In this document: in pieces, positions 3,191 to 38,736 of the stretch
How positions within the stretch are numbered: position 1 is the first letter of the stretch
Layout of the letters: every line of letters begins with the position of its first letter
Source of the DNA: Squalus acanthias
Taxonomy: Eukaryota
DNA length: 64,000 bases
Assembly: GCA_030390025.1 (NCBI GenBank)
Contig: CM059426.1
Span: 114,886,001-114,950,000, forward strand
Direction: 5' to 3'
Notes under the pieces: generated by a model
What the model was told of the DNA's origin: nothing
The model's database searches: none
Seen by the model: the letters and a program-made list of their open reading frames with translations, nothing else
Position numbers and translations under genes: made by a program

Positions 3191-3216
3191 ACTGCCTTTG
3201 CCATGGCTGCTCCAGT

Positions 3217-6114: not shown

Positions 6115-6352
6115 TAGAGATAGAGATAGAGATAGAGATAGAAAGAAAGAAAGAGTGCCATGGGATCTTTTACGTCCACCGTGAGAGCGTAGACAGGGCC
6201 TCGGTTTAGCATCTCATCTGAAGCACTCCCTCAGTACTGCACTAGAGTGTCAGCCCAGATTTATGTGCTATAAGTTCCATGGAGTGGGACTTGAAACCCA
6301 CAACCTTCTGAGTCAGAGGCGAGTGTGCTACCCACTGAGCCACAGCTGACAC
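6113..6352 (-). mobile_element. tRNA-derived DeuSINE fragment with (GATAGA)n/(GAAA)n microsatellite
   Basis: Minus strand has A box tggctcagtgg, B box gttcaagtc-like sequence and Deu-domain gtggacgtaaaagatcccatggcac. Confidence 0.8.
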
Positions 6353-6561
6353 ATAGGATACAGAGGAGGAAGAGGAGGATGAGGAGTCCTTTTTCAATGG
6401 AGAAGCATGTAACCATGATGTGAGATATCTACTCAGGAGCTTGATGCAATGCCGTTCCTGATCTATAATCCTCTCAATTACCACTTGGTGGCTGTATGTA
6501 CCTCACTGTACTGATGCTCAGCTGCTGGGGATGGTACTGTTAGATCAGAATTTGGGACTTT

Positions 6562-6700
6562 TTCCACAGGGGCCCAATTCGAGTCCACCGGGACTCATTC
6601 AAGTCCTAAGAGGTCACCCCTGCTCCGGGTTTTACACAGGGGCCCAATTCGAGTCCACCGGGACTAATTAAAGTCCTAAGAGGTCACCCCTGCTCCCGGC
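6562..6700. repeat. Two-copy tandem repeat of about 70 bp
   Basis: cacaggggcccaattcgagtccaccgggact(c/a)att(c/a)aagtcctaagaggtcacccctgctcc occurs twice. Confidence 0.9.
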
Positions 6701-8189
6701 ATCCCAATTACTCACCAACGGGCCTTACTGTTACATCAAATTTTGGAGCAAAACCAGACGGAGACGGAACTGAAGACAAAGTAAAAGTTTATTAGAAACT
6801 AGCCAGAAGGCTTTGTGCACAAAGGGAGAGAGGTTGATCTCCTCAGACTCGAACCCAACTCTCAAAGGAAAAACTACATACAAGCATTGATATACCTTTC
6901 GATAGGCAACACCCACAGGTTACAAAAGTGGGTGTACACATACAAACAGCGTCGCTACCATTGCTCCCTTCTTGATTAATGATCAGTCACTCAATGTTGG
7001 GAGCTGCCCTGAAATGTTCTGTGACATTAAACATAACACATAGTTGTTATACATGGGGCCTTCATCTAGTCTCTGGGAGCGAGGTCTACCAGACTCCATC
7101 TTGTCTCTTAAACAAGGTCGTACCACGCTTATCTTTCCTTTCCCATATTGTTGTATCTAACCAATACTTCGTTAATTCTCGAGAGAAGCTTATTATGATA
7201 AACAAGGTCCGCTCCAAAGGGAGATAAGGTGTTTGAGACCAAGAGAGAAATGGTCGACTCCCTGTACAGTTCAGTTTCCCTTATCTCTTCCAAAGGCCAA
7301 CTACGTATAAACACTGCTTCTGTAGCACTGATAATGACCTTCTAAAATGCCTAGAAAGTAAGCTATGACTCCGACAATCTGGCTGCAGGGAGCAACACTT
7401 CTTTCAGTATTATTTAAAAGGGTTAATATAATGAACCAAATAGTCCATCATGCTTTGCAACTATCTAAAAGCTATATGTACGTGTTGATATCTCTCTATA
7501 AGTGAATTAACTATCCTTTAAACATGATTTCTAATATTACTGCCCTACAGCCTTGGTTAATATATATTTAAAGACTAGGGGATATAGGTTTAGTTTCACA
7601 GGCCTAATTTGCGATCCCACAGTACTCTGTGAATACATGGGCCATGGAAGCAAGGGATACACCTTGTTACCCAAAATATATCTGGACACTTGCCAATCTT
7701 CCCAGAATAGAGCTAGGAGGTTGGGTTGCCTCATAACAAAAATATTGTGCCAATTCACAGAAAATCTGACATTCATAGGACAATTCGTTGCTGTTGGTCA
7801 CAAACTATTTGAACATTGAAGATGTGGAATCCTTTTCTGTTAAGGGAATTCAATGAGCTCATAGTAATGCAAAGTGTGTCCCATCTATTGCTCCTGGATT
7901 CTGGGGAGTCCAACAACGTTGTAGAACTGAATGGCCCTTTCGCACCGCTGTCATGGTATGGTACAACAATGTATGAATTCGTCAGCTTTCTTAAAGATGG
8001 AGAGGTTAAAATTTCGACAGAGATTCTCTTGGTCTCCCAATGTAACTTTGGCAGAAGAGCGATGGAAATGAGAGAAATGGCATAAATGGCTGTTTACACC
8101 GTTTCTCTGGGATTTCTGCTGGTCCTCCACCAAAGATACGGCAGGAGATTGTGAGAAGCCCTGTAGAAATTTTACCCGGCAGCTGAATG

Positions 8190-8400
8190 CAGGACTGGAC
8201 AGCACACCAGGTGATGTTACACAGGCTCCCAGTTGCTGCCTGGAAGAATCCAATGGGATAAAAGTTGAAAACTGAACTCAATTTGACCTGCACTTGCAGA
8301 GCTGTTCAGGCTCTTGGCCTGGCTGCTGCTCCTGGTACAGAAGCTGGCACAGTTCATCCATGGCATCCTTGGTGAATCTAATGTTGGGGCATTCTTCAGG
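8190..8400 (-). mobile_element. Harbinger transposase (HARBI1-like) N-terminal fragment
   Basis: IRFTKDAMDELCQLL and QVKLSSVFNFYPIGFFQAATGSLCNIT. Confidence 0.7.
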
Positions 8401-8784
8401 CATTGGCAGCACTGCGACAGGGTTCTGGAGCTGCTGAGAACTTGTTCAATTTTCCCATTAAAGGCTGAAAACAACAGCATTAGGAAAGGAGGATGGCTCT
8501 ATATTAGGCCACCCAGCAACAGTATATTTTCCTCCACCACAGGACCTGAAAGATCTATTCCAAATAGGTGCATAGGCACTCAAGTTGCATTATGGGGAAA
8601 TCCCCAATCAGGCATGTGGTGGGCCTTAGGCCTTTATGCCTTACATTTTGGAGGGTTGGTGCCCAATGTGGACCAGTGCAATGGGCTTTGGCAACCAGAT
8701 TATTAGCCCCTAATATAATGATGATGTTAAATAATGGCACAGTTCCTCAGGTTATTTCCCTTCTTAAAATGACAATGATCATCC

Positions 8785-8790
8785 TTTATT
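8785..8790 (-). promoter_or_regulatory. Candidate polyadenylation signal of gene A
   Basis: AATAAA on the minus strand about 290 nt after the stop codon. Confidence 0.5.
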
Positions 8791-9077
8791 TTTAATATTC
8801 AGATCTCTCTTCAAAATTACAAACCAAATTAAAATCAATCCAATGCAGACAATCACACTACATTGCATAATGAGGCTTTCTTTATACTTTTCTGCACTCC
8901 TAATGATTGTACGTTTATGTAGAAGCAAGCTGCTTTAGAAATTCCACAATTCTAGCTTTAGTGGATGGGCAAATAGCATCTATTAACATTACTACAGTGC
9001 TACATATATTGAGCCTGAAATTCCTCTTGGGTTGAAAATAAAATGAAGCTCTGTTGGGCCTTTAGTGGATGGATATG

Positions 9078-9153
9078 TCAGACTTTTGGCGCAGTGCTGA
9101 ATTTGCAGGATGGATGGTCTGATTTGTCAACACACTGGAGCATTTGAATAGGC
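9078..9153 (-). CDS. CD38: Gene A exon 8 (terminal)
   Basis: tttcttgacag|G CCT...TGA; PIQMLQCVDKSDHPSCKFSTAPKV*. The eight exons sum to 891 nt in one uninterrupted frame (296 aa). Confidence 0.93.
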
Positions 9154-9969
9154 CTGTCAAGAAAATAGCAGAATTTTAAACTTTAGAATTAGTAAACAAA
9201 ACTTAAGACCTAGATACCGAGATCCATATTTTCCTCTGAGCAGGAACAATCCCACCAGCAGTAAAAGGGAATGTTTTCCACTGCGGGTATTTTGACAGCT
9301 AGCAATGAGCCCACTTTAAATATTCTGCCAATGTATTCTTCCACTTAAGTATGAGAAAAAATTAATACAGCTAATGTCGAAGCAAGGCAAGGACACCTGA
9401 TGCAGCAACAAAGTGGAAGTCTGAACGGAAAAAACATTATTAACTTCCCCACCCTTCCTCCAAAAAAGAAATCACGCAAACACGTGGCTGGAGTCCCGGT
9501 CCACTGCAGAATTCAACTCCTTCTGCCAAATTCACCAGGAGACATAAATAGCAAAGGAGAATGGGCTAAAATCCCTGGGGCCTAGTTCTGCTGCCAGACG
9601 TGTGGCAGATCGGGACACCTGGCCACCTGCAGCTACAGACACAGACCCTGCCCTTGGTGGAACAGGCTCGAGGGGCTGAACAGACTCCTCCTGCTTCTCT
9701 GATCCCAAATTTAGGGTTGGGAACATTTGCATGCCCAGTAAATGCACTTCAGCAGCCCCAACCGAGGCCCAGAACAATGGAACAGCATCATTCCACTCCA
9801 ACTGCAGAGTGAGGGCCCGGAAAGTGCCCAACAGAGCTTCATTTTATTTTCAATCCTCAGCCTCTCGGAGTTATAGGGTGCTTTAGTGCAGGGATCGATT
9901 ACCTTTGGCAGTCAAAGTTTTGGGATCTTTCCTGGTACTCGGCTGGCGTGAGTTTCACTGAGGCCTTTA

Positions 9970-11030
9970 AGGAACATAGGAACAGGAGTAGGCAATTCAG
10001 CTCCTTGAGCCTGCCCGCTATTCAATTAGATCATGGCTAATCTGAATCTTAACTCCATCGACCTGCATTAGTTCCCTAACCCTTAAGATCCTTACCTAAC
10101 AAAAATCTACCTCTCTCAGTTTTTTAATTTTCAATTGACCTAGCCTCAACTGCTTTTTGGGGGAAGAGAGTTCCAGATTTCCACTACCCTTTGTGTGAAG
10201 AAGTGCTTCCTGACATCATTCCTGAATGGCCTAGCTCTAATTTTAAGGTTATGCCCCTTTGTTCTGGACTCTCCCAACAGAAGAAATAGTTTCTCTAGCT
10301 ACCCTATTAAATCCTTTGGGGGAGAAATTCAGTTACGCCCCGTTTGGTATCGAGTTTTGTCCCATTTTCCAGTCTTCTATTGTGCGATCCCCCCAGTTCC
10401 ACCCAGGGCCCAAGAGGAATTTCAGGCTCAATATATATAGCACTGTGGTAATGTTAATAGATGCTATTTGCCCAGGCTGAAGTTTTTAAAAATTGTTATT
10501 TTGTATGTTTGTTTGCAACTTCAATTTGTGTTAGTCCAACTTATTTGCAACCGCAAACCAATATTCATTTCCGTATATTCACAGTTATACAAAAGTGCTT
10601 CCTGATTTCACTCCTAAATGACTTAGCCCAAATTTTAAGATTATGCTGACTTGTTTTTGATTCCCCGACCAGAGGAAATAGCTTTTCTATATCTACCCAA
10701 TCGACTCCCTTGATTATTCTAAATAACTCGATTAGATGACCTCTCAACCGTCTAAACTCAAGGAAATACAAGCCAAGTTTATGCAACCTGTCCTCAAAGT
10801 TTAACCCTTTAAACCCTGGTATCATTCTGGAGAATCTGCATTGCACCCCCTCCAAGGCCAATATATCCTTCTTGTGGTTCGGTACCCAAAACTGAACATG
10901 TTTCTCCAGATGGGTCTTAGCAAGGCTCTGTAAAACTAAAGCATAACTTCCTCTCCTTTGTATTCCAGCCCCCTTGAGATAAAGGCAAACATTCCATTAG
11001 CCATTTTGATTACTTTTTGTACCTACAGGT
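9970..11030 (-). mobile_element. CR1/HER1-like LINE 3' fragments (two pieces with an intervening segment)
   Basis: ALEGVQCRFSRMIPG..LEFRRLRGHLIE; typical 3' tail at about 9970. Confidence 0.85.
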
Positions 11031-11255
11031 TTGAAGTCCTAGGAAAGAATGAGTTGTTGAAGGAGAGAGTACCTTGATTTCAATAGTGAGGATGCAGGGA
11101 GGAGGACATTGTAGGATAGTATAATTCGGAATTAGGAGGAACAAGATAATAAAATTATCTTAAAATACTGACATTTTACATAAACTCTTGTGATAGAATT
11201 TCACTAGCTTTGTAAACTTTTCAATATTTAAGTATGAATCTGATGTGGTACACAC

Positions 11256-11342
11256 CTGTAATTATCCTTGCAAGAGTACATGATCTTTTTCTCCTTCAGA
11301 ATCTTTTCCAATTCTGCAACACTGCCAGCACCACAGGATTCA
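11256..11342 (-). CDS. CD38: Gene A exon 7
   Basis: tttgcag|T...AG|gtgtgt; 87 nt; ESCGAGSVAELEKILKEKKIMYSCKDNYR. Confidence 0.95.
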
Positions 11343-11817
11343 CTGCAAATCAAAATGTTGACTCTGAGTTCAGTACAATTGCTAAAATTAATTGTAATTG
11401 CTAAACTTAAAGTAACAGTTGTCCTTATTAGCCTGAAAACTACTACTTTATAGGGCTTCATGAAAAAAATGTTCGGTAAAGGTTTTAATTTCACAAGATC
11501 ACAATATAGAAAAGGGAAGAGGGAGGGCATTCGGCTCATCTTATCACACTCATCAAGAAAGAACAAATAGTCTGCCGTAGCACCATCGACTGGTTCTTAA
11601 ACGCTTCAGGGTTTTTTTTTGCATCCACTGTCCTATCCAGAAGTCCGTTCCATGTGCTAATCACTCTATTGTGAAGAATAACCTCCTAACATCAGTCCTA
11701 AATTGCCCTTTTACCAGTCTTAGCATGTGTCTCCCATTCCTCCTAGTCACCTCCTTTCAAGGTTGAACAGAGGAGGTTTTTCCAATTCTTCCTCATGACC
11801 CAATCCGCTGAAGCTAT

Positions 11818-12570
11818 TGGTGCAGAAATTCCGTTCCCTACGGGTGTGTACGCGCTGTGTACTCACCCGTAGGGACATCGGAAATGCCGGTTTCAGGCAT
11901 GCACTGCGCTGGAAACCGGCATTTCCGATCTGTCAAGAAAGCTCTTGACAGATCCTCCGGCTGCCCGGGAGCAGGGCCTCTGCGGGCGGAGAGTTCCGCT
12001 TTTTGGAGACCCTCCGCCCGCAGAAAACCCTTACAATTCTTGCGCCTGGTAAAAGCAGGTGTAAGGCCTGCTTTTACCAGGATAAGAGTTGAAAAAAGTA
12101 AAAAAAAAAATTTCCACTGATTTATCATTTAAAAATACTTCAAAGAAAGGTAAGTTTATTTTTAGCCCCGTTAAAAACTTTAATTATTTTTTTCAGAAAA
12201 TAAAATTTTTGTTTAAAATACTTAATTTATTGTAATTTAAAGTCATTTAAAAAATGTGATTTTAAAAAAAATTATTTAAAGTTTTACTATGTTTTGGGGT
12301 GATCTCTATTCATATATTTGACAGGTCTTCCTGTCAAATGTATGAAGGGAGATTCCCTTCTCTGATTGGCTCACCATGGCCCACGTGATCCCAGGGACGC
12401 TGCGAACCGCCTGTGCCTCTGGGATACGTGGGCCCTGCGCACCGGCAGTTTGGAGAGGCCCAGCAGCGGAACTCTGCGCCTCCCGGGAGCCCTCCGGTCC
12501 AGGCGCAGATTTTTCCAGATCGCAGCCCTCCGCCCGCGGGAGGCCTGCAATCGGAATTTCTGGGCCATTT
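11818..12570. mobile_element. MITE with inverted termini
   Basis: Ends gcagaaattccg / cggaatttctgggcc. Related pieces lie at 22760-23030, 38745-38910 and 47432-48152. Confidence 0.65.
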
Positions 12571-14281
12571 TAATGTTTGGAAATGCGAAGCACAATATGA
12601 CCCACATTGACACATAACACCAGGTTATGCAGAAGTGACACATGACAATTCTGACTCATCTCCAGAAACAAAGGTTTGCTGAACACTTTTCCCAGAAAAG
12701 AACCTTCCTTGTTTTTGTTTTTAAACAGTCGGACAAGTACACCCTTAAATCAGTGCTAACAATTTCTGTGGTATATCTTAGTCGGATAGTGTGACAGGTG
12801 AGATGGTAAGCCTGACACAGTACAATGCAAATGAGGTCAGGCAGACAGGTAGGCAGGGAGACCAACAGTGGCCTCTTCATATTTGACTGTCCTTTTTCTG
12901 CTATACTGTGAATTATTTTGATCAGCAAGGTGAGTGATGTTAGTGCGGGGGAATGCAACACTTTTCATTTCAGGTACCCAATGTCAATGTTTAACACTCC
13001 CAGGTCAGGTATAGAATAGGTTAGATGCAAAGTAAAGCTGCCTCTACTTTGCCCTGACAATGTACCTCAGCTCCAATCTCAAAATAGCCAATCTCACTCA
13101 GAGGCCAAAACATGCCGAGTCATGTTTTTTCCATTTCCTATACCAGCATCTTTTGGCAACTTGGGGATTGTTAAAAAACTTTTTTAAAAATACATACTAC
13201 TTTTAACTTCTAGATTGTGGGTGGCTGAATTATATTACTGTTTCTACAGCTAACAGGTAAATTGATGTATGTCACTCATTTAGGGAGCAAGATATGTCAT
13301 GAGTGCCCCTTTGAAACTTTTCCTCTCTTCTTAAGGTCCATGTGTTGTGTTCTGCCCTCAGGCAGGCCCAAACTCAAGTCTCATACATGAAATTCTTGAG
13401 CCACTTACTAGGGAGGGGTCGCTGAGGAGGTTTCCTGTCGCCTTCCTCACAATTTTTATCTCCTGAGAACCATGTCCTTGGTCGGCTGCTGTCAAAGAGC
13501 CCCACCCACCCTTTATGAGGGGGGAGCACACGCACCCATCGGACTCAAGTACCCCTGCTTGACATCAACCCGGTATTCGGAGTTGGGTCGCTGCTCGCCA
13601 AGGCTGTCTTGAGTGGGGTCGGAAACTAACCCTTCTGACTCAGAGGTGGGAATACTACCACTGCACCGGTGGTCACTCTGTTTGGATGCGAGCACCCTGC
13701 TGGATGTCAACCCAGTATTTTGAAACCATAGTCTAGTTGCCACTCGCTGGAACTGTCCAGAGTGGGGCTCAAACCCTTCACCTTCTGATTCAGAGATGGG
13801 AATAATACCACTAAGCCAAAGGCTCACTCCATTCTTAATGATATTAAATTTATGCTCTTTAGTTACTGAGTCATCGACCAGTGAAAATAGTCATGGAAAA
13901 GTAATTGTAAGGTTCTATTTCTCGCATTTTTTCCCCTCTTTTCTATTTCTGGGTCTTTATGCAATTTGTGTCATCTTTGGCTGAGGAGACAAGTGGGAAA
14001 CCTGTTCCCAGGCCTTTGTCAGTACAGTTATGTTATATCTCTGCCAGGAATATGTGATAGCGACTCAGTGCCATTCTCCCTCCAAAGTTCCTCCCCACCT
14101 GGCCTCCCTACAACAGCACAGGTCAGACTGTGCTTGGGGAGTCCACACCCTGCCAATCAATGGCATACCGTATTGGAGGTCTAACAGGCTTTACCACTCC
14201 ACCATGCTGCAATGGAAATGGAAAAATTACTGTATGTAATAAATCCCACAGTATGCATGTAATAAAACTGCAAAACCTCAC

Positions 14282-14374
14282 TTATCAGGCCCATCAATAT
14301 TGTCCATGATCCAGAGGTGAACTGAGGTAACCCGCTGGTTGTCTAATTTTCCAAGTTCTATTTCACCAAAAATG
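14282..14374 (-). CDS. CD38: Gene A exon 6 (catalytic Glu)
   Basis: ctgtcactag|C...AA|gtgagg; 93 nt; SIFGEIELGKLDNQRVTSVHLWIMDNIDGPD. The E of IEL aligns with CD38 E226. Confidence 0.95.
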
Positions 14375-15205
14375 CTAGTGACAGGAAAGAAAAACACAAT
14401 CAGTGCCAATAATGTGCAAAGAATAATGTAATCAATATGAATATTGATATGATACTCAGTTAGACTGTGGTTTAAGTGAAAGCCACCAATTTCTGCTATG
14501 TACCATACAGTTCTTTCATAATTTAAGATTTCTTGTTACCATACTAAAGAAAAGAAATATGCATGTAGCAATGAACATTCAGGGTTTAAACAGCTTGGTG
14601 TAAGGCATTTAATTCATAAGCATTAATACCACCATAAGGGTATCAAATAAACAATTTAAAGATACATTCCAAGATAATACACTACAGCAGCCTTATCCTT
14701 GAGTATTTATTTGGAAAATACCGCCCTGTATTCAACCTCAAACTATTTCTACATTTGGTTAAACCCTCACCACCTCCCCCCCTCCACCCCCCATGCCTTT
14801 CTGATCGGCGCCATCATCTTTGCTATATTTTCAGTACCAGCCTTTTTGGAGGAACTGTATCAAAGGCCTTACTGAAATCCAAGTACAGCAGAGTCCCTGT
14901 TACAGCTGTGACCCTTCATCATGAAGGTTGATTGCACCCAAAACGTCACCTGTTCCTTTCAGATGCTGATTGATCTGCTGTGTTTTCCAGCATCGTCTGT
15001 TATAAATAAGTGGCAGTAATTTCTGCATCGGTTCTTCCGATGTCCCGCCACAACTTGGGCGGGAGATCTGCAGAAACCCCAGAGAAATGTCCATCTCCAC
15101 CATTTCTCCGAGGTTTCCACCAAACTTCCGCTGAAGTTCCCGGAAATTCTACCCTGTTATAGTTAAAAGTACAGTTCTGCCACGCTGATGTCACCAGTGT
15201 TGTAC

Positions 15206-15282
15206 CTGTCTGTTCTGAAAGCTTTGACGTGAGCAGATCCATTCAGCATCACCGTTACTTCTCCATGGGCCTTTTTTGCATA
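15206..15282 (-). CDS. CD38: Gene A exon 5
   Basis: tttcacag|TAT...AG|gtacaa; 77 nt; YAKKAHGEVTVMLNGSAHVKAFRTD, with the VMLNGS motif. Confidence 0.95.
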
Positions 15283-16906
15283 CTGTGAAATGTACACACA
15301 ATTACTTATCTCCTGTCTAACTGGTTCAGTTGAATCAAACCCACATTCATTTTTTCCGAGCAAATAATAAAGCCCCGGTTTTACCCAGCATGACTGGCAG
15401 GTTAAAATGGCGGTCGACTGCTTTGTGCAGCGTTCCCACCTGCCGTCACTTCAACTCTGTGTAAAACAGAGTCGGGAGGGTAGCTCGCCTCTACCTTGCA
15501 GGGGTCTACTTAAGGTGCAGAAGTCACGGCCCGACGACCGCATCGGTGCTATGACACAATTTTAACACCCGGGATCATGAGGCTCGCGCAGCGCCGAATC
15601 TCCCCCTCCCCCAGCAAAACCTAGCAGAATTTGACAGGGTGGCTAAGGTAAGTTTCTTTTTGAATTTTTGTTAGGCTTTCCTCCGGAGTGCTCCCTCCAG
15701 CCCCGCAAGGAGTCCTTGGACCTCCCCAGTACTGGCCTTGTCTCTCCCTCCCAGCGTCAAATGCTCCTTGGAAATCCCTCTCCGAGCACTAACTTATGAG
15801 GGGTACCATTACCTTGGGTCCCCGGCAGTGTGTGGCTTCTGGCATAATTCGCACCTGCCGGCCATGGGGTCACTCCCGCCACCCCAGTTTCTGGCAGGAG
15901 ACGGATCGGAACTATTCAAATGAGGCCTAGGAGTTAAAATGGACCCCAAGCCTCACACGGAACTCTTCACGAAGGTTTCTCTCCTGCCATGCACCCTGGC
16001 TGTACTGAACATGCCCCGAGTTAGAATCGGAACTTATGCTTATTTCTACAATTCTTCAGGCCTTGGGCCCTAAATGCCACTTTCTATTTTAAAATTGTTT
16101 TCACTCTTTAGTTCCTCCCTGCGCATCATTTTTGAAACAACAGAGGTGACCGATGACTTGCTTCAATGCCTTTACTGATCTAACTTTAATTCTCATTTTC
16201 TTCTCTCCCCCTCTAAGGACGCTGATTCAGGCTGACGTATGGTTCCATGGTTGCTAGCAACCCTCCAGTACTTTGTCCAGGCCGACACATGAAGAATGGC
16301 CACTTGGATCGTGAGATAGACAAATTATAGGGACATGAACGTTGAGCCCCAATCCTGTTCACCTGACATCCACTCATGCACACTTTGCAGCAGGAGTCAG
16401 TTGACATGATTAGGAGTGGCAACCCAGGCTGATTTGTTTTTCCCTTCTCTAGTCTCGGGAGCACCCTTACCTAGTCGACAAACTCGCTTCCTCTGCTGCT
16501 TGGAGACACCTGAGCAGATCAGAGGATTTCAGTTGAGTCAGATCAGGTGTGCAATTATACTGCTATGACACAGGCATTAAATGGCAAGTGTGGTACTTTC
16601 TAAACTGGAATGAAACAAGTATTGTTTATGGGTTGGAGGAGGGGGAGGTGTGGGTCTCCATGTTTATTCTACTGCCTTTGCTCTGAAGTTGCATTCTAAC
16701 AGGATGATCTCAAATTTGTAGAAAAAGACAAAAGCAAATTTAGCGGTGGCTTGGTTTAGGACACTGATCCCTGTAAAGCTCACCTTAAATCCAGACCCAA
16801 AACAGATTCATAGCAGAGGCATAAAAAAAATTGCCATCCAATTGTATACAATGAACAGATCTAATCAAGTAATGCACAAGTTGATTCAGCAATGTCACCA
16901 AAATTA

Positions 16907-17335
16907 ACATAGAAACATAGAATCTAGGAGCAGGAGTAGGCCATTCGGCCCGTCGAGCCTGCTCCACCATTCAATACGATCATGGCTGATCATCCAAATC
17001 CAGTACCCTGTCCCTGCTTTAATCCCCACAGTACACATATCCCACCCTACCCCCGTAACCCTACGTATTTAATTCCCCCTAACATATCCCATCCTATCCC
17101 CATAACCCCACATATTTAATCCCCCCTAACACTAAGGGTCAATTTATCATAGCCAAATCAACCTAACCCGCACATTTTTGGACTGTGGGAGGAAACCGGA
17201 GCACCCGGAGGAAACCCACGCAGACACGGGGAGAATGTGCAAACTCCACACAGACAGTCACCCGAGGTCAGATTCGAACCCGGGTCCCTGGCGCTGTGAG
17301 GCACCAGTGCTAACCACTATGCCACCGTGTTGCCC
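16907..17335 (-). mobile_element. HE1-like V-SINE
   Basis: tRNA-derived head (gggcaacacggtggcatagtggttagcactg..ggttcgaatc), V-domain gtgtggagtttgcacattctccccgtgtctgcgtgggtttcctccgggtgctccggtttcctccca, CR1-derived tail, and an internal duplication of about 45 bp. Confidence 0.9.
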
Positions 17336-17768
17336 GTGTTAAACAGAAAGTTTAAAAAAAAAATCATGGTTTATTTTTTAACAAAGTATTTATTTTCTCT
17401 CCATTTCTCCTCTTCAGGGCTCTCTGAGTCACACAGCATTCCTCAGCTGAGAGGAAGGTGACAGGCTCCCAGTCTTCACTGATGCCACACCATAATCAGC
17501 TATTAGCTGGGTGCATGAGCGTCACCCCATGGTGACGGTCCTTTTGGTTTTCCCTCCTTTGCTGTAGGTGGGCTTTGTCTCGACACAAGACCACAGTGGC
17601 ACAGGTGAAAGACTCTGGGCTTATTATGTGGGTATTTGAGGATGTAAATTGGCATCGGCACTGAGGCACAGAGTGCTGAATCTTCAACTAAAAGCTGCTG
17701 CTCCAATGTTACTGCACCGCACTAACACATTGCCCCATCAGAATTGTTTCAGAGAAAGAAGCACTTAC

Positions 17769-17851
17769 ATTTTCAGATGCCGCTTTCCAAAATGAACTCA
17801 ATGAATTGTTTTTACAATCGGTGTATTTGGGACATGCTTCAAAATTAGGTC
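17769..17851 (-). CDS. CD38: Gene A exon 4
   Basis: ttgttacag|GA...AAT|gtaagt; 83 nt; GPNFEACPKYTDCKNNSLSSFWKAASEN, with the FWK motif. Confidence 0.95.
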
Positions 17852-19223
17852 CTGTAACAAATTAATAATTTACAATTCAAATGATTGTGAAATGTTAATA
17901 TCCCAGGCTCTATCTGCAAGGTACAGGAGTTGTTTGTTTAATATTATACAGGAAAATAAACTTTTATAACGTTAAGTACTGAGCAACCTTTCTTATAAAC
18001 AGTGAACTGTAAACACACCATGGGCTGCATTTGAACTATTTTATGTGGATCTCTCTTGTTATTTTAAGTTTGCTAAAAAATGCTAATTTTAGTGTATGGG
18101 TTTCACTGTGTTACGATAGAAGGAGCTTAAGTCATGAGCGAGAGGCATATTTTGGGCTGGATGCTTGCTTTTAAACATTTATGCTCATTTTAAACTTCTT
18201 TTCATCCAAAAGGCGAGAGTAACTGCCAGCAAGGAGCTCTGAGGATGGGTTTACTCAGCCTCCCATACATTCATCACACCTGGTTGAAATACAACATTTT
18301 GAGAATGACTTCTTTATATTTCTGACTCTTTGACTAAAATTAGCAAAGACAGGAACGGCACCTCTGATATATTTAAAAAGCACTATTCAAAATTTTAGGA
18401 ACCATAATTTTTTTTAAAGCAAAGAATGAATCAGTTTGTGCTTACGTTTCACCAGATGATTCATTATAAACTACAAGTTTTTCACTTCTCCACTTAAGAG
18501 CCATTATTACAGCATTAGGGCTTGATTCGTGGTTTTTTTTGCAGTTCCTGAGCAAGAACATTACTGGTCATCAAAAAAAAAATCAATGAAATGATTCAAC
18601 AAGGTGACCCAAACATAAATAAGGGTGAATTCACAGATCCTTTGCTTCCAATGGGGAGCTCCACTTGAAAGGAACACAGCTGGAGCCCCACATATTCTTT
18701 GAATACGACTCTCCTTTGTCCCGCCGATAACCCAGATTTGATGCCCTGATTGGTGCTGAATTATCTGATCTTGTTTGTGATAGTGGTGGAGACATGGCAA
18801 CTGCCCTCAGTGTTGTCCTCGAAGGTCAGTTACATACAGGCTCTTTGAGGCTGGAATATAGCTGCGGCCAGTCTCGGAGGCCTGAGTTTGGGCTGTTTAA
18901 ACTCAAGGGGCGATTTCACACTCCTGCAGCCCCAGCAGGGAGTTGTGCTCATGTGGAGCACATTGCAGGCCAGTTTCCACATATTAAAATGAATGGATGG
19001 AAAATCACAGGCTGTGATCCCACGATGCACTGTCTGGGAATGCCACTTCTTGCTGGAATCGGCCCATTGGTTCCCAGCGAATACAGGTTTGTGACAAAAA
19101 TAGGAGCCTTCGTGTACTGCACGGAATTGAATGACCCAATGGAAGCTGATGCGTACCATAAGTTCTGCATTGAGGAGATCTTTGAGAAGCTCAACCTGAG
19201 AGTGATATAAAAGCGACGGTATA

Positions 19224-19838
19224 GGGGGAAAAATTTGGTGGAGCCCCCTTTGGGGTGCTAACGTCGCCAGGACTACTGGAAGCGCTCCCCCTCCTTCTTG
19301 GGGTGCTACCAGTGAATTTCGCGGCACTACGTGCAACAGCGCCATGCACGTCGGCATGTAGCGCCGCATCATTGCAGGCCTCCCTCCCCTGATTAAAGGG
19401 GAGGGGCCTAGCGCTGTGCGTACCGGGGCCCTGCTGGACCATAGGGAGCGGGGTGCCGGGAAAACAGCCCGGCATTCAAGAGGAGTGCCAGGTTGAGCGA
19501 TCGCGGCCGGCACCCCGAAGAAAAAAGGGGAAGGGGGCAGGTAGGTGCTGGCAGGCGGCCCAAAACAAATGGGCGCCTGACACCTGCCCTTTAAGTAGCA
19601 CCGCCGCGGCTGCATAAACGCCACCCTGACCCTGTCGGACATATTGTCCGGTGATAGGTCGGGGGGTGCAACCCAAGGTTGCAGCAGGGGCACTGCGCAC
19701 GGCGATGACATCATCGCCGGCGGCGCAGCGCCAGAGGGTGCTACCAGCTACCGCCGCTAACCTCTCGTGGAATTTCGCGGGAGGCATTAACGGCGCCGCG
19801 CCCGGGCGCTAGAGGCTTTGCGTCCCGTTAGCGCCCCT
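19224..19838 (+). mobile_element. GC-rich non-autonomous element, copy 2
   Basis: Same GGGGGAAAAATT end and internal blocks as copy 1. Confidence 0.85.
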
Positions 19839-20235
19839 TAGGGTTAGAGTCAACCTGAGTCCAGAGGAAGCCCCTTGGACAGTTTAAAAACAGTTTTTTT
19901 TTAAGTTTGAGAACCCAGCTCTCAAGACATTCCAAATGTAATGGATGGGGGCTGGGGTCTGTGTGTGCTTATAAGAGGAACTCTCGCCTGGCCACGAGAA
20001 TTCGATTCAGATCCAGGCAGGAGCCAGGCAGCATAAACAAGGTATTGCTTGTCTGGAACAGGTCATGTCGATGATCATTCCAAGAATACAATTTTAAACA
20101 AAAGCATTTATTAACAAACCAAATTCTCAAAATCTCCACTGCTAAGGAGCCCATGAATTTATTATTCTTGAATTACAAGTAAAAGGTATTGATGGTAATT
20201 CAATACTTTCTGCCATAAAAAATGACACTACTCAC

Positions 20236-20371
20236 CCGGGCTGGAGAGTTTCCCACACCAATTCAGGCCGTCTATCATATAGCCAACCAAAGTGCTCTCG
20301 AGAGGCATAACCTTCTTTGTGACGTCGGTGTACTGAAGGATGAGTACTTTAGTCTGGCTCCAGAAGATTGA
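20236..20371 (-). CDS. CD38: Gene A exon 3 (active-site Trp and TLEDTL-like signature)
   Basis: ttcttag|TCA...CCG G|gtgagt; 136 nt; SIFWSQTKVLILQYTDVTKKVMPLESTLVGYMIDGLNWCGKLSSP. Confidence 0.95.
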
Positions 20372-22099
20372 CTAAGAAATATGAACAATCTCAGCAGTGA
20401 AATGTTAATGGAACATGAGGAAAATAACATTTAAATTAAAAAGTACTTCAGGATTGCACTGTTGGATCATCTTACACTGGAGTTTTCTTTCTTAAATTAA
20501 CAGCCATATTAAAAGAAAATAATCAGTGGATAGATATTTTATGAAGCTTACTGCAGATTGGGAGCTGCCATTTTTTCCTATTCAAGGATGCTGAGAGTTG
20601 ACATGTTTGTGGCTGCCCGGACACTCTGAGCTTGCCCGGACACTCAGCAATTTACAAAGAGCCATGAAGAGATCTTTCTGGCAGGACAGATTTAAAAACA
20701 TCAGAACTTCAGATGTAGCGAAAATTATTTTTAAGGAAACCCCAGGGTGTATAATAGAATGCATGGGATAGATTTTGACATAGTGCGATAGTGTAAAATT
20801 GGTGATAGTGGATCGGCCGCCCATTTTAAACCTCCCAATTTTTATTTCCACTGACTTCAATGGAAATAAAAAATGGGGAGAGATGTGAACCTGACTGCCG
20901 ATTCGTTATCACCCATTTTAGACTATCGCACAAAGTCAAATTCTACTCCATTGAATTTTACAGTCTGCTCTGGTATTTATCTCCACATGAGCCAACTAGT
21001 CTAATCCCCCCGCTCCTGATTGCACCGTATATCCTTTAGTATTCCTCTTCTTCAAGCAACTATCTAAATACCTTTTTAAAATAATTTATGGACTTTGCTT
21101 CAACATTAGTTTGTGGCAGGCAATTCCACATTCTAAACATCCGCTGTGCAAAGAAATGCACCTGGCTGTTCCGTGTGGGCTCTCCTGATCTCCCGCCATA
21201 ACTCAAGCAGATGTTTGGCGGACATGAAGCAGAAACGGTGGAAATTCTATCCAAGGCTTTCGAGCTTGCCCTGTAATTCTTTGTGGTTGTTTTAAATTTG
21301 AGCCTCTGGTTACAGTTTTGCCAACTATTGGAAGCAATTTATCTAATCTTGAAGACGTCTACCAAAAAAATTCCAGACCTGTTGTTATGGGCCCAGGCTA
21401 TGATCTCGGCCTGGACCCTCAGGTGGGGCCACTTCCGCCGTTTGGTGGCCTGGCATACCTATTGTCACTGATAAAATGCTGTATCTGGGTCCTAACCTAT
21501 TTACCTGCCCTTCTGACACACTCCCACAGGAATTTCAGTGTAAGTGAGGAGAATTTTCACCCCTGTAATGCAATATGAATGTCAATCTTTTAAGTCTTTT
21601 TTAATGACTGGTTATTAAAATGAATCTCCTATTCCTTGTTTATTTTATCTCAGGATGTGGGCAGCACTGGTAAGGCTGCATATATTGCCCATTCCTATTT
21701 GCCCCGGCAACTGAGTGGCTTAAGAGTCTAGTGGCACTCGATTCACATGCAGGTCTGACTGGGTAAGGGTGGCAGGTTCCCTTCCCTGAAGGACTTTAGT
21801 GAAACAGCTGAGTTTTTACGACAGTCTGGCAGCTTTCATGACAATTTTCTTCTGGTGCCAGCCCACAAATTAACAGATTTATTGAATTAAATGTCATAAC
21901 TTGTCATGGTGGGATTTAAGCTCACAACCTCTGGCTGCTAGTTCAGGACCATTCATACTACACTATCGAACCCCTCTTCCATCCAAATTCAATGATTTAA
22001 CCTTGACACATGGTATAACATAGAAGTGAAGTTGCAATGTCATTACTGTATGTTAGTCTGGACTATCATGACAGGCTCCTGAAGTGCCTTATTCCTCAC

Positions 22100-22229
22100 C
22101 TGGTTAGCTGGGATGTCATGATCTGCCAGATCCAGAAATGGTTTATAATCCTCTTTTGTGATACTGCATGGGTCCTTGGAACTAAATGCACGCAGAAATG
22201 CTTCCCAGAGCTTTGAACAGTCTTTGTTT
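22100..22229 (-). CDS. CD38: Gene A exon 2
   Basis: tttgtcag|A AAC...CAG|gtgagg; 130 nt; NKDCSKLWEAFLRAFSSKDPCSITKEDYKPFLDLADHDIPANQ. Confidence 0.95.
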
Positions 22230-22354
22230 CTGACAAAAAAGAAACAAACACTAAATACGCTGTTAGAATGGAGTAATGCATTGTCATTGTTGCTAAGAAA
22301 TATTGGTGCTGAAAATCCGTTATTTGTTCTGGTATACTCGCAGCTAAAGAAAGA

Positions 22355-22758
22355 ACTTGCATTTATATAGTGACTTTCAGAATGTTCCAAAGCACTTTAT
22401 AGCAAATAAAGCATTTTTTTAAACTTGTAATATAGGGAAATGTGGCATCCAATTTGCACACAGCAAGGTCCCAGAAATAACTTCACCTGATGAAGGAGCA
22501 GCGCTCCGAAAGCTTGTGATTTCAAATAAAGCTGTTGGACTATAACCTGGTGTTGTGCGACTTCTCACTTTTGTCCACCCCAGTCCAACACCGGCATCTC
22601 CGCATCATGGCCAGAAATAGCAATAAGATAAATGACCCGATCATTTGTTTTTAATGATGTTGGTTGAGGGATAATATGGGCCAGAACTCCCCCTTCTTCA
22701 AATATTGTCATGGGATCTTTTACATCCACCTGAGATAACAGACAGGATCTTGTTTAAC
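22355..22758 (-). mobile_element. DeuSINE with nested Penelope terminal fragment
   Basis: Deu-domain sequence on the minus strand. The insert at 22480-22610 is flanked by a 9-bp duplication, ccagaaata. Confidence 0.75.
22483..22519 (+). ncRNA. Minimal type I hammerhead ribozyme motif (Penelope-associated)
   Basis: UCAC CUGAUGA A GGAGC-AGC-GCUCC GAA AGCU U GUGA. Confidence 0.7.
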
Positions 22759-23756
22759 AAGGGGCCGTATATTCCGATGCCTATGGGTATGTATGCGTTA
22801 TGTACACACCCGTAGGGACATCGGAAATGCCGGTTTCAGGCATGCGAATTGCAGGATTACTTTTGCCAAGGCCGGAGGGGGGGGGGGGGGGGGTTCCTCA
22901 CTGCAAAGCTGGAAAATCCTGGCAGTGCTGCAGTGGGACCAGCATTGCAGCACCAGAAGAGGTGGTGAGGGACCTTAAAGGGGCAAAATACGTCAGAAGA
23001 TTAAGGAAGCTCCTGGCTTTATAGGGCTTGGCAGAGACTGAATCCGAAAAGGGTTAGTATCTGGGGGACCCATTTCCCCACTGTTTGCACTGCTGGCCCG
23101 CCTGATTGTAGACAGGATAATGGAGGAAACTTCAGCCCACCATGTCTAAACTTGAGACATTTTTTATTGAGAACTTCCCTCCTTACCTCAGTGATGTTAC
23201 AATCCTTTCAAGATTTCCCTCCTTTAAATTAACCCTTTTTTTGCTGCTCTTGGTTTTGTATTTTTTTCTCTCTCACATATAAGCGTTGACATACATGAAT
23301 AAAAAAAGGTTCAACTGCCCCCAACCATTCAGAATGTGGAAAATAAACAAGCAATGCCAAGGTTACAATTCAAGATTTTCCTAGTCACATAAGATTAGCA
23401 CCCAAAGGGGGAGTTTTAACTCGGGGCGGTGGAGGAGTTAAAATAAAGGTGGTAGATTAACTACACCGTTCCCGCTCTTCCACCATTTTTCCCAGGGACC
23501 TTCCACTGGGCATCCGAGTGGATCAGGTGGAAGCCTCATTAATCTATACAAATTGGGGTCTTATGATGTACATAGGACCTCAACAGCATTTTACCTGCCT
23601 ACTGGGTGGAGTGCCACCATGAACACTCTGCCCAGTAAAAGCTGGCAGAACAGAAGAGGCCCTTCGAGGTAAGTGAGTGCTCCTCCGGACTCCACACGAA
23701 TAACGTGGGCTGCTGCAGCCCTGGGCCCCCCCGCCCCCGAAGCTCTGCTCTTGGAA

Positions 23757-24060
23757 GACTGAGGCCCCGTCTGCTCTCTCAGGTGGACGTAAAAGATCCT
23801 ATGGCACTATTTCTAAGAAGAGCAGGGGAGTTATCCCCGGTGTCCTGGCCAATATTTATCCCTCAACCAACATAACAAAAACAGATTATCTGGTCATTAT
23901 CACATTGCTGTTTGTGGGGGCTTGCTGTGCGTAAATTGGCTGCCGCGTTTCCCACATTACAACAGTGACTCCACTTCAAATAGTACTTCATTGGCTGCAA
24001 AGCGCTTTGAGACGTCTGGTGGTCGTGAAAGGCGCTAAATAAATACAAGTCTTTTTTTTT
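23757..24060 (+). mobile_element. DeuSINE (SacSINE1-like)
   Basis: Deu domain gtggacgtaaaagatcc..ggcactattt..gaagagcaggggagtt..gtgtcctggccaatatttatccctc. Confidence 0.85.
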
Positions 24061-24862
24061 GTCCAGGCTGAGTTGTCCTGAGCTGGCTGACATTGCGCTG
24101 GCCAGGAACCAGCGGGCTGCATCGGAACTCGCTTGAGGCGTGGAGCTCGCTGCATATATGTTAATGAAGCCTGGGCCTTGAAATGGGCTGGACTTCCTGC
24201 CAGCACTATCAGGTGGCCAGCTGCCAGCTCCACCAGTCGGTGCCCCTTTAGGTAAAATCGACCACAGATTGTGTTGCTCTCTCAAGACTCTCTGTTTCCC
24301 TCTCTGCAAGTTGTTGAATAGAAAAGTTTCAGCCATGCTGTTTACTGTGGGTAAGTGTTTTCACACAAGACTATATATGAAGCATTTCATTGTGGCAGCA
24401 GGCAAATACTTAGCAAGGATGAGCAGAGACAGAGAAAAAGGAAGAGAATTTTTTTTAAAAAGCTCCTTACTTAAAAAAAAAAATCAGACAAGTTGTATTT
24501 GGATTGTCAAGATTTTGATTAAATATGTTTCAGTCTTGGATTGCTCACATGCAACTATCAAATTAAATAAGAGCCAAAGTCAATCTAAATGTATTTTTCT
24601 ACCAGTCAGTTGTCTAGCAAATAAACTGAAGATTAGAAAGTGTTTTGCATTTGTTAAATAGATTTTGGTGGAAAAAGGACTGGAGTATGCTGTTCGCACA
24701 CACTTTGAAAACAAGTTAATTCACTGACTGTTTATATCTTTACTGGTTAAGACTTTTAATTGTTATAATTAATGAAAACAGCCACAAGCAGTTTTTCTGA
24801 AAACATTTAAAATTATGATGTGCTTTAATGCTGTGCCAGTGAAGAGTTACAAATTGACCTAC

Positions 24863-25071
24863 CCTGCCTTGGGATTTATGATTCCAATGTAGTTGAAGCA
24901 TCTCCCAGTCATTATGTCTTTCAACTTTTCTGTTGATCCTTCTCCTTTCCAAACAGCTTTGGTGTCGTCCTTTGCCAACGTTCTCTCTGTATGGCTTAAA
25001 AGCATGAGTCCAAGGAGGAGCAAATCTATTATCAGCAATAAGATATTGGTGTTACTACAAGAATTGGCCAT
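24863..25071 (-). CDS. CD38: ADP-ribosyl cyclase gene A (CD38-like), exon 1
   Basis: ATG at 25071 in strong Kozak context (agaATGG). Encodes MANSCSNTNILLLIIDLLLLGLMLLSHTERTLAKDDTKAVWKGEGSTEKLKDIMTGRCFNYIGIINPKAG, with the family motif WxGxG..GRC. Donor GG|gtaggt. The CD38 rather than BST1 assignment is inferred from 8 exons and the downstream position. Confidence 0.9.
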
Positions 25072-25268: not shown

Positions 25269-27700
25269 GGGAGAAATTGGGCTCTGTAGTGCCCGTTTTT
25301 AGGCACTAATTGGCCTCCTAGTACTCAAAAATGGTGTTCAAGAAGTGTGTGCACACTTGGTATAACGACTGCCGGCAGATTATGACGTCAATCAGTTAAC
25401 AATGCTAATTTGACACCAGCGCTGCCACGCTCCAGCCTGTGCCCTCTCTTAACCTCGCACAGCTGAACATGACGTTAAATGGCATGAAGGTCGCCCTATC
25501 AGTGCTATTTAAAGGGATCATGAACTACTTACAGGTTAGTTGCTGGATTATTTCTTCTGACTTTTGGTACAATTGTACATGTTTTTGGAGCTTTCCTGTA
25601 CTTGTCTAAAGTTTCAATAGTTTACAGGGAGCGGTCTGGTTGGTGCTGAAATACTTACTTGGTGATTTAAAGGCTTGTGCTGAAACAAGTTGCTTCCAGA
25701 CATGAGTGGCCTGGTAGGCCTTCCTCTTGGCATTTCACAGTTTGCTGTATAAGGGAAGTCACTGAGGCTCTCTATACAAAGAGAGACAGCTTCAACTCAT
25801 TCCCTCTTGCCAGAGACAAGCAGGTGGAGCAAGCACGAGGGTTTGCATGGATTGCAGGTTTCCCCATGGTGCAGGGTGCCATTGACTGCAAGCACATTGC
25901 ATTGCGTGCGCCTCATGTGAACTTTGCCATTTTCCTGAACCGAAAGGGATTCTACTCCCTCAATGTACAGCTGGTGTGCGACCACAGGCAGCACACATGC
26001 AGGTGAATGCCCGTTTTGCTGTCAGTAGTCAAGTGTCAGCCATGGCTCAATTGGTAGCACTGAGCCAGAAGGTTGTGGTACTGGGGTGTCAGCCTAGATT
26101 TTTGTGTTCCAGAGACTTGAGCACAAAAATCTAGGCTGACACTCCAGTGCAGTACTGAGGGAGTGCTGCACTGTTGGAGCTGCCATCTTTTGGATGAGAC
26201 GTTAAACCGAGGCCCCGTCTGCTCTCTCAGGTGGATGTAAAAGATTCCATGGCACTATTTCAAAGAAAAGCAGGGGAGTTATCCCCGGTGCCCTGGCCAA
26301 TATTTATCCCTCAATCAACATCACTAAAACAAAGTATCTGGTCATTATCACATTGCTGTGCATGGGAGCTTGCTGTGCACAAATTGGCTGCCACGTTTCC
26401 TACATTACAACAGTGACTACACTTCAAAAAGTACTTAATTGGCTGTAAAGCGTTTTGGGATGTACGGTGGTCATGAAAGGCGCTATATAAATGCAAGTCT
26501 TTTCTTTTTAGCCATGATTCCTTCATTCTGTGGCAGTCCTCTGTGCCAGCTATATTTGACCCACCACGGCAAGTCAAAAGCTGACGACTGGGTGACAAGG
26601 GTTATCCACTCATGACATGGCTCATGACTGTGTTCCGGAACCCATGCACACGTGTACAGCAGGCCTACAATGAGAGCCATGCTGCCACAAGAAACATTTC
26701 TGTCCGGGCTCTACATGATCAAATAATTCATGAGCGATATCAGTAACCTCAAGCACAGCTCCCCATTCACCAACAGTCCCACACTCCTTACCTTTCCTCT
26801 AATACTGACCATCACATCATCACCTTTCCGACAACACCAAAAAAAAGCACATTCCAATCCAAATTTATAATTTAAATCATGACATAATGCTTACAAAAAT
26901 AAACTAATCACCTTTGTGCATTCCCTTAGTGCTTCTTCCGTGTGCCTTTGCCTCTCCTAGTGCTCCTATGAGGTGCTTCCCCAATGGCTGCAGCATGGGT
27001 GGTGAAAGGCTGCTGACCTTCTGTTGAGGAGACTGCAGATGGCCTTGGAGGATGACCTCGAGCAGCTCTGGGCCTAGAAGGCCAGGCTTCAGGCTGCACC
27101 ATCTCGGCCTTGGCTGCAGCAGTCTGGGGTGGCTGGCTGACAGGCAACAGCAAGGGCACTGGCAGAGTGGCAGGGGCGGGAGCAGGAATGCTGTCATCCT
27201 GAGATAGGACAGCAGGTTTGTGCTCCATGGAGCCACTGCTACTCTCCCGAGGCGGCGCATCAGCAATCCTAGTAATCTGTTGGAGGACAAATTGTTGGAC
27301 TGCTGTGATGCCCTGGAAGTCCCTTTCAACACTGGAATCTAGAGCTATGGTGGCAGCAGTCTGAGCTTGCATTTTAGCAGTCTGAGCTTCCACTGCAGCA
27401 CTCACTGCTTGTGCTCCAATGGAAGCTGAAACATCGGCCATCAGACGCTGCATCATGCTGGGTTCCATAGGTATGCTGATGGAGGTGACCACCAGTTCCA
27501 TGTTGGAAAGGATGGGCTTCAAGCTCTGCACAAATACTTGTGCCAAGTTGGTGCTGAACTGCTCCATGCTCCTTGACATTGAACACAGGCACAAAGCATT
27601 TGGGGGTGCACCCATCAGCCTTCTTCTATAGCCTGGTCCATCGAAGTCCTCATCTGAATCATCTGCAGCAGAACTAGTGTGCGACCTCGTCCTCTGGTGT
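25269..27700. mobile_element. Degenerate PIF/Harbinger transposon (transposase on +, Myb-like on -) with nested DeuSINE at 26033-26508
   Basis: IAGFPMVQGAIDCKHIALRAP..FLNRKGFYSLNVQLVCDH is the HARBI1 DDE region. The convergent ORF 26926-27615 resembles the accessory-protein C-terminus also seen at 32.9-34.8 kb. Confidence 0.85.
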
Positions 27701-27929: not shown

Positions 27930-29060
27930 TAAATTCATGTCTATCTAATCGTAGCCAGAGAGCCACCTGCAAAGGTTTCTCTTCCCACTCCTGCATTGTT
28001 ACCTCTGGTGTCCCCCAAGGATCTATCCTTGGCCCCCTCCTATTTATCATCTACATGCTGCCCCTTGGCGTCAGCATCTGAAAACACAGTGTCAGTTTCC
28101 ACATGTACGCTGACGACACCCAGCTCTACCTCATCACCACTTCTCCCAACCCCTCCACGGTCTCTAAATTGTCAGACTGCTTGTCCGAGATCCAGTACTG
28201 GATGAGCAGAAATTTTCTCCAATTGAATATTGGGAAGACCGAAGCCATTGTCTTTGGTCCCCACCACAAACTCCGTTCGCGAGCCACCGACTCATCCCTC
28301 TCCCTAGCATCTGTCTGAGGCTGAACCAGACTGTTCACAACCTTGGTGTCATATTTGACCCTGAAATGAGCTTCCGACCACACATCTGCACCATAACTAA
28401 GCCCGCCTATTTCCACCTCCATATCACTGCCCGTCTCTGCCCCTGCCTCAGCTCATCTGCTGCTGAAACCCTCATCCATGCCTTTGTTACCTCTAGACTT
28501 AACTATTCCAACGCACTCCTGGCTGGCCTCCCATGTTCTACCCTACGTAAACTTGAGGTCATCCAAAATTCGACTGCCCGTATCTTAACTCACACCAAGT
28601 CCCGTTCACTCATCACCCCTGTGCTCGCTAACCGACATTGGCTCTTGGTTAAGCAACGCCTCAATTTTAAAATTCACATCCTTGTTTTCAAATCTCTCCA
28701 TGGCCTCGCCCCTCCCTATCTCTGTAATCTCCTCCAGTCCCACAACCTCCCGAGATATCTGCGCTCCTCTAATTCTGGCCTCTTGACCATCCCTGATTTT
28801 AATCACTCCATCTTTGGTGGCCATGCCTTCAGCTGCCTAGGCCCTAAGCTCTGGAATTCCCTCCCTAAACCTCTCCGCTTCTCTTTCCTCCTTTTAAGAC
28901 GTTCCTTAAAACCTACCTCTTTGATCAAGCTTTTGGTCAACTGTCCTAATTTCTCCTTATGTGATCGGTGTCAAATTTTGTTTTATTACGCTCCTGTGAA
29001 GCGCCTTGGGACGTTTTACTATGTTAAAGATGCTATATAAATATAAGTTGTTGTTGTTGT
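27930..29060 (+). mobile_element. L2 LINE 3' portion
   Basis: GVPQGSILGP, YADDTQLY, LIHAFVTSRLNYSN; (TTG)n tail. Confidence 0.9.
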
Positions 29061-38675: not shown

Positions 38676-38736
38676 CTAAACACAACTGCAGGCTGGATGG
38701 TCTGGAAAGTCCACGCATTGCAGGAGGCGAATAGTT
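38676..38736 (-). CDS. BST1: Gene B exon 8 (apparently terminal)
   Basis: tttctttcttacag|A ACT...TAG; TIRLLQCVDFPDHPACSCV*. Confidence 0.9.

Follow-up and report, generated by a model that had tools for sequence, protein, structure and literature searches.

We analyzed a stretch of 64,000 nucleotides of shark DNA (Squalus acanthias, G000:C2:114886001-114950000), called the window below, in which an earlier note made from the letters alone had read a complete 296-residue ADP-ribosyl cyclase, possibly secreted and unanchored. The gene concerned, here gene A, lies on the minus strand and is intact and expressed: RNA contigs and tblastn searches with orthologues give nine exons and a protein of 303 residues. 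On balance, we favor the view that gene A is a nine-exon gene of the cyclase family at the CD38 position, with a soluble, secreted product that hydrolyses nicotinamide adenine dinucleotide (NAD) mainly to ADP-ribose. The unanchored state is well supported by the sequence, the RNA, and the orthologues. On the same grounds the product is likely to be soluble, as the note had proposed, and it is likely released from cells, secretion being predicted; the word cyclase, on the other hand, probably names a minor activity of this enzyme.

Structure and transcripts of gene A

The frame of the earlier note could be reproduced as eight minus-strand segments with GT-AG ends, free of stops from 25071 to 9078, and its translation matches the N- and C-terminal strings quoted there. 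The start it claimed is wrong: there is an upstream coding exon, and the contigs halt at the acceptor at 25025. Contigs X3 and X6, which come from two studies and show no mismatches, both span 24863-25025 and end exactly at this AG acceptor, beyond which they hold 90 and 79 extra letters, respectively. By bin depth these letters fit 29424-29513 in X3 and 29424-29502 in X6; the X6 depths agree to two decimals (7.71 and 0.80) and the X3 depths closely. Both contigs are classed as RNA only tentatively, but they skip GT-AG introns and a search of the genome gave no retrocopy. Orthologues of 302-303 residues open with a different segment of 22 residues, and tblastn with shark orthologues gave an upstream match at 29565-29425, with this segment at 29490-29424 and a GTAAGT donor. 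The coding part of exon 1 (29424-29490) comprises 22 codons plus one nucleotide and encodes a basic n-region; its placement comes from bin depth and orthologues, not from a direct alignment row.

Since the contigs stop at 25025 and the orthologues start upstream, the first 15 codons of the 296-residue frame are intron: positions 25026-25071 form the 3' end of intron 1 and are noncoding in the transcripts seen. Two details of the earlier reading are artefacts, namely the roughly nine residues ahead of the hydrophobic stretch, which are translated intron, and the aspartate said to interrupt this stretch, whose codon is split (G/AT) over the splice junction. It had also been held that an upstream coding exon in the transcript would speak against a soluble product; such an exon exists, and no anchor is gained from it. 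The 296-residue form could in principle arise from a second promoter within intron 1, where an in-frame ATG lies 15 codons ahead of the acceptor with no stop between. We consider this very improbable, given that the X3 depth by the acceptor (4.46) allows no cover of 25026-25071, that X6 leaves at most a trace, and that none of 15 orthologues carries this sequence.

Exon 2 (24863-25025), placed by RNA and tblastn, encodes the apolar core (residues 24-33), the predicted cleavage site after Ala40, and the start of the catalytic domain. Exon 3 (22100-22229) was placed by sequence and an X6 piece, and exon 4 (20236-20371), with Trp124, the PLESTL motif containing Glu145, and Asp154, by sequence, RNA, and alignment. 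Exon 5 (17769-17851), with Trp187 and Ser191, was read from sequence, with X3 and X6 running on into it from 15282, the upstream edge of exon 6 (15206-15282; sequence and RNA). Exon 7 (14282-14374) carries Ile220 and the catalytic Glu225 (sequence, RNA, and alignment), exon 8 (11256-11342) is seen in sequence and RNA, and the coding part of exon 9 (9078-9153) follows from the joint with exon 8 and the read-through described below. A stretch of about 110 bases in intron 4 (18400-18560, minus strand), open between AG and GT, was rejected as an exon candidate, being skipped by X3 and X6 and having no family match.

The last two exon joints are present in all four runs, from two studies, and in each the final exon reads through the stop into the 3' untranslated region (7440-9077). 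The contigs end at 8807, 8810, and 8756, near poly(A) signals (8796 and 8790), or at 7440, a longer form reaching at least this point. No further joint or exon for a glycosylphosphatidylinositol (GPI) anchor was found after the last coding exon in any of the four runs (positions 3000-15400). As a point against an unanchored product, contigs lose rare isoforms, and gene A may have a minor GPI isoform. Runs X9 and X10 looked like DNA from a relative and played no part in the splicing evidence.

At the 5' end, use of another in-frame donor, at 29460, would yield a 291-residue form whose leader is 12 residues shorter and has lost all its basic residues. Annotations include this short form in Scyliorhinus (P0005) and treat it as the main form in P0010, P0011, and P0013; depending on the shark, one form or both are annotated. 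None of the RNA contigs here showed the short form. By their depths, the contigs start near 29513 and 29502, positions that, as contig ends, cannot prove the true start. An in-frame ATG at 29565, overlapping a TATA-like box (TATATAA, 29565-29571, minus strand), probably precedes the transcription start. P0012 and P0016 are annotated from this upstream ATG, which adds 14-25 residues, and the frame is open here too.

Ends of the protein and predicted localization

The earlier note had seen no hydrophobic GPI signal at the C-terminus, and this holds: the stop falls eight residues past the last Cys, and the best 15-mer of the last 45 residues has a Kyte-Doolittle mean of -0.32. Hydrophobic C-tails occur in none of 16 members of the gene A family, in none of 11 members (one truncated) of the family of gene B, the neighboring BST1 orthologue, and in 17 of 24 bony-vertebrate BST1 proteins (17/25 as run, before P0289, a caecilian CD38 that sat in the BST1 group, was dropped). 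A bird BST1, P0301, sat in the CD38 group of the N- and C-terminal comparison.

The apolar core of the N-terminus is short, at 10 residues, and leads into charged residues and a small-residue site (TLA/K). Small residues at -3 and -1 favor cleavage by signal peptidase, and Thr38 and Ala40 fit this rule. By hydropathy, which is not a topology predictor, gene A does not have a type II anchor: its apolar run of 10 residues, found also in P0001, P0003, and P0014, compares with 17-25 residues in type II CD38 proteins. The best 21-residue hydropathy mean is 1.20 for the true N-terminus versus 2.07 for the 296-residue form. This value ranges from 0.66 to 1.99 in the gene A family (n=16), from 1.10 to 1.78 in the gene B family (n=10), from 0.97 to 2.19 in GPI-tailed bony BST1 (n=17), up to 2.30 in GPI-tailed invertebrate proteins (n=29), and from 2.24 to 3.49 in type II CD38 (n=17). 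The GPI-tailed proteins serve as the comparison because their signals must be cleaved, and the N-terminal hydropathy of gene A lies within the BST1 range. Values of at least 2.1 are reached by all 17 type II CD38 proteins, by 1/17 GPI-tailed BST1, by 1/29 GPI-tailed invertebrate proteins, and by no member of the gene A (0/16) or gene B (0/10) families; none of the 16 cartilaginous-fish orthologues of gene A has an anchor-like N-terminus.

Several points weigh against a cleaved signal peptide. The threshold of 2.1 was picked after the data had been seen and the type II set was chosen partly by eye, so the hydropathy split is a description and not a blind test. A signal of 40 residues with an n-region of 23 is long, the orthologue P0013 has Pro at -3, and a structural model draws, with low confidence, a single helix over residues 19-35. 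The disulfides and glycosylation sites led us to set aside another idea, a bipartite mitochondrial leader.

If the apolar core were left uncleaved, the product would be held in the membrane. This outcome, which we find rather improbable, would fit the CD38 slot that gene A occupies, the basic residues N-terminal to the core, as in type II proteins, and the apolar runs of 17-19 residues in the ray orthologues P0015, P0016, and P0021; CD38 itself is known in both orientations (PMC7734206). The shortness of the run in gene A, P0001, P0003, and P0014 argues the other way, as do the charged residues and the conserved small-residue site right after it. It is highly likely instead that the basic n-region and the apolar core would route the product into the endoplasmic reticulum (ER), where signal peptidase would cut after Ala40. 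Five disulfides and up to four N-glycans would form on the resulting chain of 263 residues and 29 kDa. Given ER entry and this cleavage, a product without a KDEL-type tail would likely be secreted and not retained.

Secretion and retention are indistinguishable from sequence alone, and after cleavage of its signal the enzyme might also be kept in the ER, granules, or lysosomes, where luminal cyclic ADP-ribose (cADPR) or nicotinic acid adenine dinucleotide phosphate (NAADP) would serve intracellular calcium release. In sea urchin, SpARC1 is a soluble, glycosylated enzyme of the lumen that is not secreted (PMC1949048). Its authors suggest, however, that a hydrophobic C-terminal domain retains it (PMC1949048), and gene A has no such domain. 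Gene A also ends without a KDEL-like signal, and the C-termini of its orthologues vary freely, which argues against a terminal retention signal. We regard luminal retention as unlikely.

Catalytic domain and predicted activity

The exons of gene A pass the cut-off of the PF02267 profile in the genome search, and the orthologue P0001 covers positions 1-241 of the 241 in this profile, with 304 bits. Cysteines 65, 81, 98, 159, 172, 178, 253, 274, 286, and 295 match the five disulfides of the family. Glu225 and Trp124 are invariant in an alignment of 50 sequences, and gene A also keeps Asp154, Trp187, and Ser191, together with four N-glycosylation sites. The human CD38 counterparts we take to be W125, W189, and S193, with an extra disulfide C119-C201. 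The fold was read from the orthologue: the predicted structure of P0001 (predicted local distance difference test, pLDDT, 89) resembles BST1, CD38, and the Aplysia cyclase, and against 1isf (BST1) the model gives a Foldseek E of 4e-31, a root-mean-square deviation of 1.7, and a template modeling (TM) score of 0.95 on the target.

All 14 members of the gene A family compared have Ile220 and Glu145; the Aplysia-type Phe at the cyclisation site is absent from them, Ile220 standing in its place. In CD38, the mutations T221F and E146A increase the output of cADPR (PMC7734206), and Ile at the cyclisation site accompanies pure NADases (PMC6368836). Set beside these mutants and this pattern, Ile220 and Glu145 argue for hydrolysis over cyclisation, which is likely the lesser reaction of gene A on NAD. 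Glu225 would stabilise the ribosyl intermediate once nicotinamide leaves, and with Ile220 and Glu145 in place water would, fairly likely, beat cyclisation. The likely role of the predicted enzyme would be to clear extracellular NAD in body fluid and to supply ADP-ribose to adenosine signalling. Two features sit less well with a hydrolase. The extra disulfide of CD38 is missing (Ala118 and His199 in gene A, no Cys pair in 14/14), and its absence has been linked to cyclase activity (PMC6368836). Gene A also has PLESTL for TLEDTL, in which the Glu is kept and the Asp is replaced by Ser or Asn in 13/14.

Genomic context and orthology

The gene order is CC2D2A, gene B, gene A, FGFBP, and PROM1, and the same order has been published around BST1-CD38 (PMC6368836, PMC8669677). 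No other family genes were found by tblastn in 464 kb, and genome searches with PF02267 (21 scored candidates) and turtle CD38 (17), whose counts are lower bounds, returned only gene A and gene B, with no sign of a third family gene or a retrocopy. The hemerythrin profile PF01814, used for FBXL5, gave no match and is uninformative. Second CC2D2-family and FGFBP-family genes lie at 34.48 Mb and 37.11 Mb of G000:C14, likely a paralogous block, with no cyclase match.

Of 187 proteins, 67 were omitted as partial or over-long. In a tree of 38 proteins, gene A stands with its orthologues in a separate clade (99/99), with the basal branching open, and the addition of a second lungfish protein left the tree unchanged. 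A shark-only duplication of BST1 was rejected (approximately unbiased test, p-AU 0.0016), and a grouping of gene A with CD38 was not (p-AU 0.32). Most of the CD38-like residues of gene A are ancestral. From synteny and parsimony, we lean towards gene A being the CD38 orthologue of cartilaginous fishes. Weighing against this, gene A groups with CD38 in just 2-4 of 200 bootstraps, the free tree joins it weakly to BST1 (75/43, 158 of 200 bootstraps; 77/7 in a second tree), and its derived residues split two with BST1 and two with CD38.

Whatever its localization, gene A might instead be a third old paralogue, sister to BST1, with cartilaginous fishes having then lost CD38. This is a serious possibility that falls short of probable. 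Besides the free trees, Pro143 and Asn/Gln126 point to it as derived states common to gene A and BST1, BST1 is the top PDB match in both sequence and fold, and a published tree names both shark genes BST1-like (PMC8669677). The link with BST1 has low support, however (Shimodaira-Hasegawa-like approximate likelihood ratio test, SH-aLRT, 43 and 7), and the CD38 grouping is not rejected; a third paralogue also needs an extra duplication and two reciprocal losses in one slot, and Ile220 and Ile224 are derived states common to gene A and CD38. We file gene A in the ADP-ribosyl cyclase family, and not strictly as CD38 or BST1, because it lacks defining features of each.

Gene B and other features of the window

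Gene B lies on the same strand, upstream of gene A, and has 8 exons, 277 residues, and a signal-type start. Exons 1-4 are 5.6-17 kb past the window end (upstream part at G000:C2:114955593-114966910). The window holds, on the minus strand, exon 5 (58954-59030; sequence and tblastn), exon 6 (56134-56226; gene model and alignment), with Phe at the cyclisation site and the catalytic Glu, exon 7 (46941-47027; gene model), and exon 8 (38676-38736; tblastn, gene model, and alignment). Six internal exons are equal in length in gene B and gene A. Gene B shows the BST1 pattern (Phe220 and Gly145) and, in the 38-protein tree, falls into a clade with bony BST1 (100/99) that leaves gene A outside. By the genomic reading and annotated orthologues, it stops three residues past the last conserved Cys, without a GPI tail. 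Nine complete annotated orthologues stop 3-10 residues past this Cys, as does sturgeon BST1 P0250; GPI-like tails are present in BST1 of eel, tarpon, and tetrapods. A tblastn search with bird BST1 tails, a weak test, gave no GPI exon for gene B. The 615-residue catshark model P0006 (GCB67447.1) fuses gene B and gene A, which is likely an artefact of annotating two genes in tandem.

Decayed retrotransposon pieces lie at 60175-60747 (with a weak RVT_1 match at 60175, below the cut-off), 28168-29037, 54935-55459, and 37437-37955, and high-copy repeats resembling short interspersed nuclear elements, with very deep cover, at 23780-24040 and 26060-26510.

Evolutionary significance

For catshark and skate, Martin et al. 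reported a tandem of two BST1-like genes, and for elephant shark a single gene, with conserved synteny, and no CD38 in chondrichthyans; the terms "GPI" and "signal peptide" do not occur in the available part of that text (PMC8669677). Koludarov and Aird described venom NADases as soluble (PMC6368836), and Churamani et al. described the sea-urchin enzyme as soluble and ER-retained (PMC1949048). No literature on the anchoring of shark enzymes was found in a search that left most subscription journals outside. In short, the gene pair and its synteny are already annotated and published, soluble family members are known elsewhere, the chemistry is already known, and the importance of gene A is evolutionary and comparative.

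It is their anchors that define CD38 and BST1, and the receptor role of CD38, like its "topology paradox", depends on the membrane. More notable is the reading in which neither family gene of cartilaginous fishes has an anchor, the gene B part being a genomic reading with annotated orthologues. We suggest tentatively that these fishes may have no membrane-anchored enzyme of the CD38/BST1 type, with the products of both tandem genes secreted and extracellular NAD handled by plasma-type enzymes; gene A would then represent CD38 either before it gained its anchor, extra disulfide, and receptor role or after it lost them. Adaptive immunity combined with two apparently unanchored genes makes such a lineage a natural test case for the functions that require the enzyme only. 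Signal peptide and signal anchor seem to have been swapped more than once in vertebrates, because sturgeon, bowfin, a caecilian, and amniotes have long anchors and shark, lungfish, and frog have cleavable-looking starts.

Comparison with known systems

The closest protein compared with gene A is that of a sawshark (83%). The cartilaginous-fish orthologues (among them Pristiophorus japonicus P0001, XP_072352509.1, and XP_067868300.1) bear the automatic names "hydrolase 1-like" or "2-like"; shark orthologues are 74-83% identical to gene A, with equal length, N-terminal layout, and motifs and no GPI tail. The elephant-shark protein P0022 falls in the gene A clade (99-100), which, with the single copy published, would mean that this species kept gene A and not BST1.

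Gene A resembles CD38 in its slot between BST1 and FGFBP, WS at 124-125, Glu145, aliphatic residues at 220 and 224, Glu225, predicted fold, and lack of a GPI tail. It differs in having no type II anchor or extra disulfide, in PLESTL, and in an additional leader intron; the extra disulfide is also absent from sturgeon CD38 P0059 and lungfish P0041. With BST1/CD157 it shares a predicted signal-peptide-type N-terminus, five disulfides, Pro143, Tyr194, and the best PDB match (1isf), whereas it lacks the GPI tail, WEN, Gly145, and Phe220 and lies outside the BST1 clade that holds gene B.

Among jawed vertebrates, gene A is not alone in its unanchored layout, which recurs in the neighboring shark BST1 and in CD38-like proteins of frog, lungfish, and one mullet. 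The CD38-like proteins of frogs, lungfish, and mullet look cleavable (1/10 reaches 2.1), and the layout is therefore not confined to sharks. The frog proteins P0025, P0026, P0030, P0036, P0037, P0300, and P0068 have TLEDTF, the extra disulfide, a signal-like start, and no tail, and are possibly secreted frog CD38; P0039 looks like a frog gene model in which an anchored copy has been joined to another copy. Lungfish P0041 and P0305 group outside BST1 (91/91), with cleavable-looking starts and no tail, and P0305 is named "hydrolase 2-like" yet carries the CD38 disulfide pair.

By sequence and RNA, gene A is unanchored and likely soluble; the Aplysia cyclase and SpARC1 are soluble and unanchored, and all three have no extra disulfide. 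The Aplysia enzyme, a strong cyclase, has Phe at the cyclisation site where gene A has Ile, and SpARC1 is retained in the ER (PMC1949048), whereas gene A is predicted to be secreted. The snake-venom NADases, CD38 orthologues reported to be soluble, share with gene A the CD38 slot of a jawed vertebrate and Ile at the cyclisation site (PMC6368836). Unlike gene A, they have TLEDTL and the extra disulfide, and they carry a hydrophobic segment of 25 residues without a predicted signal peptide.

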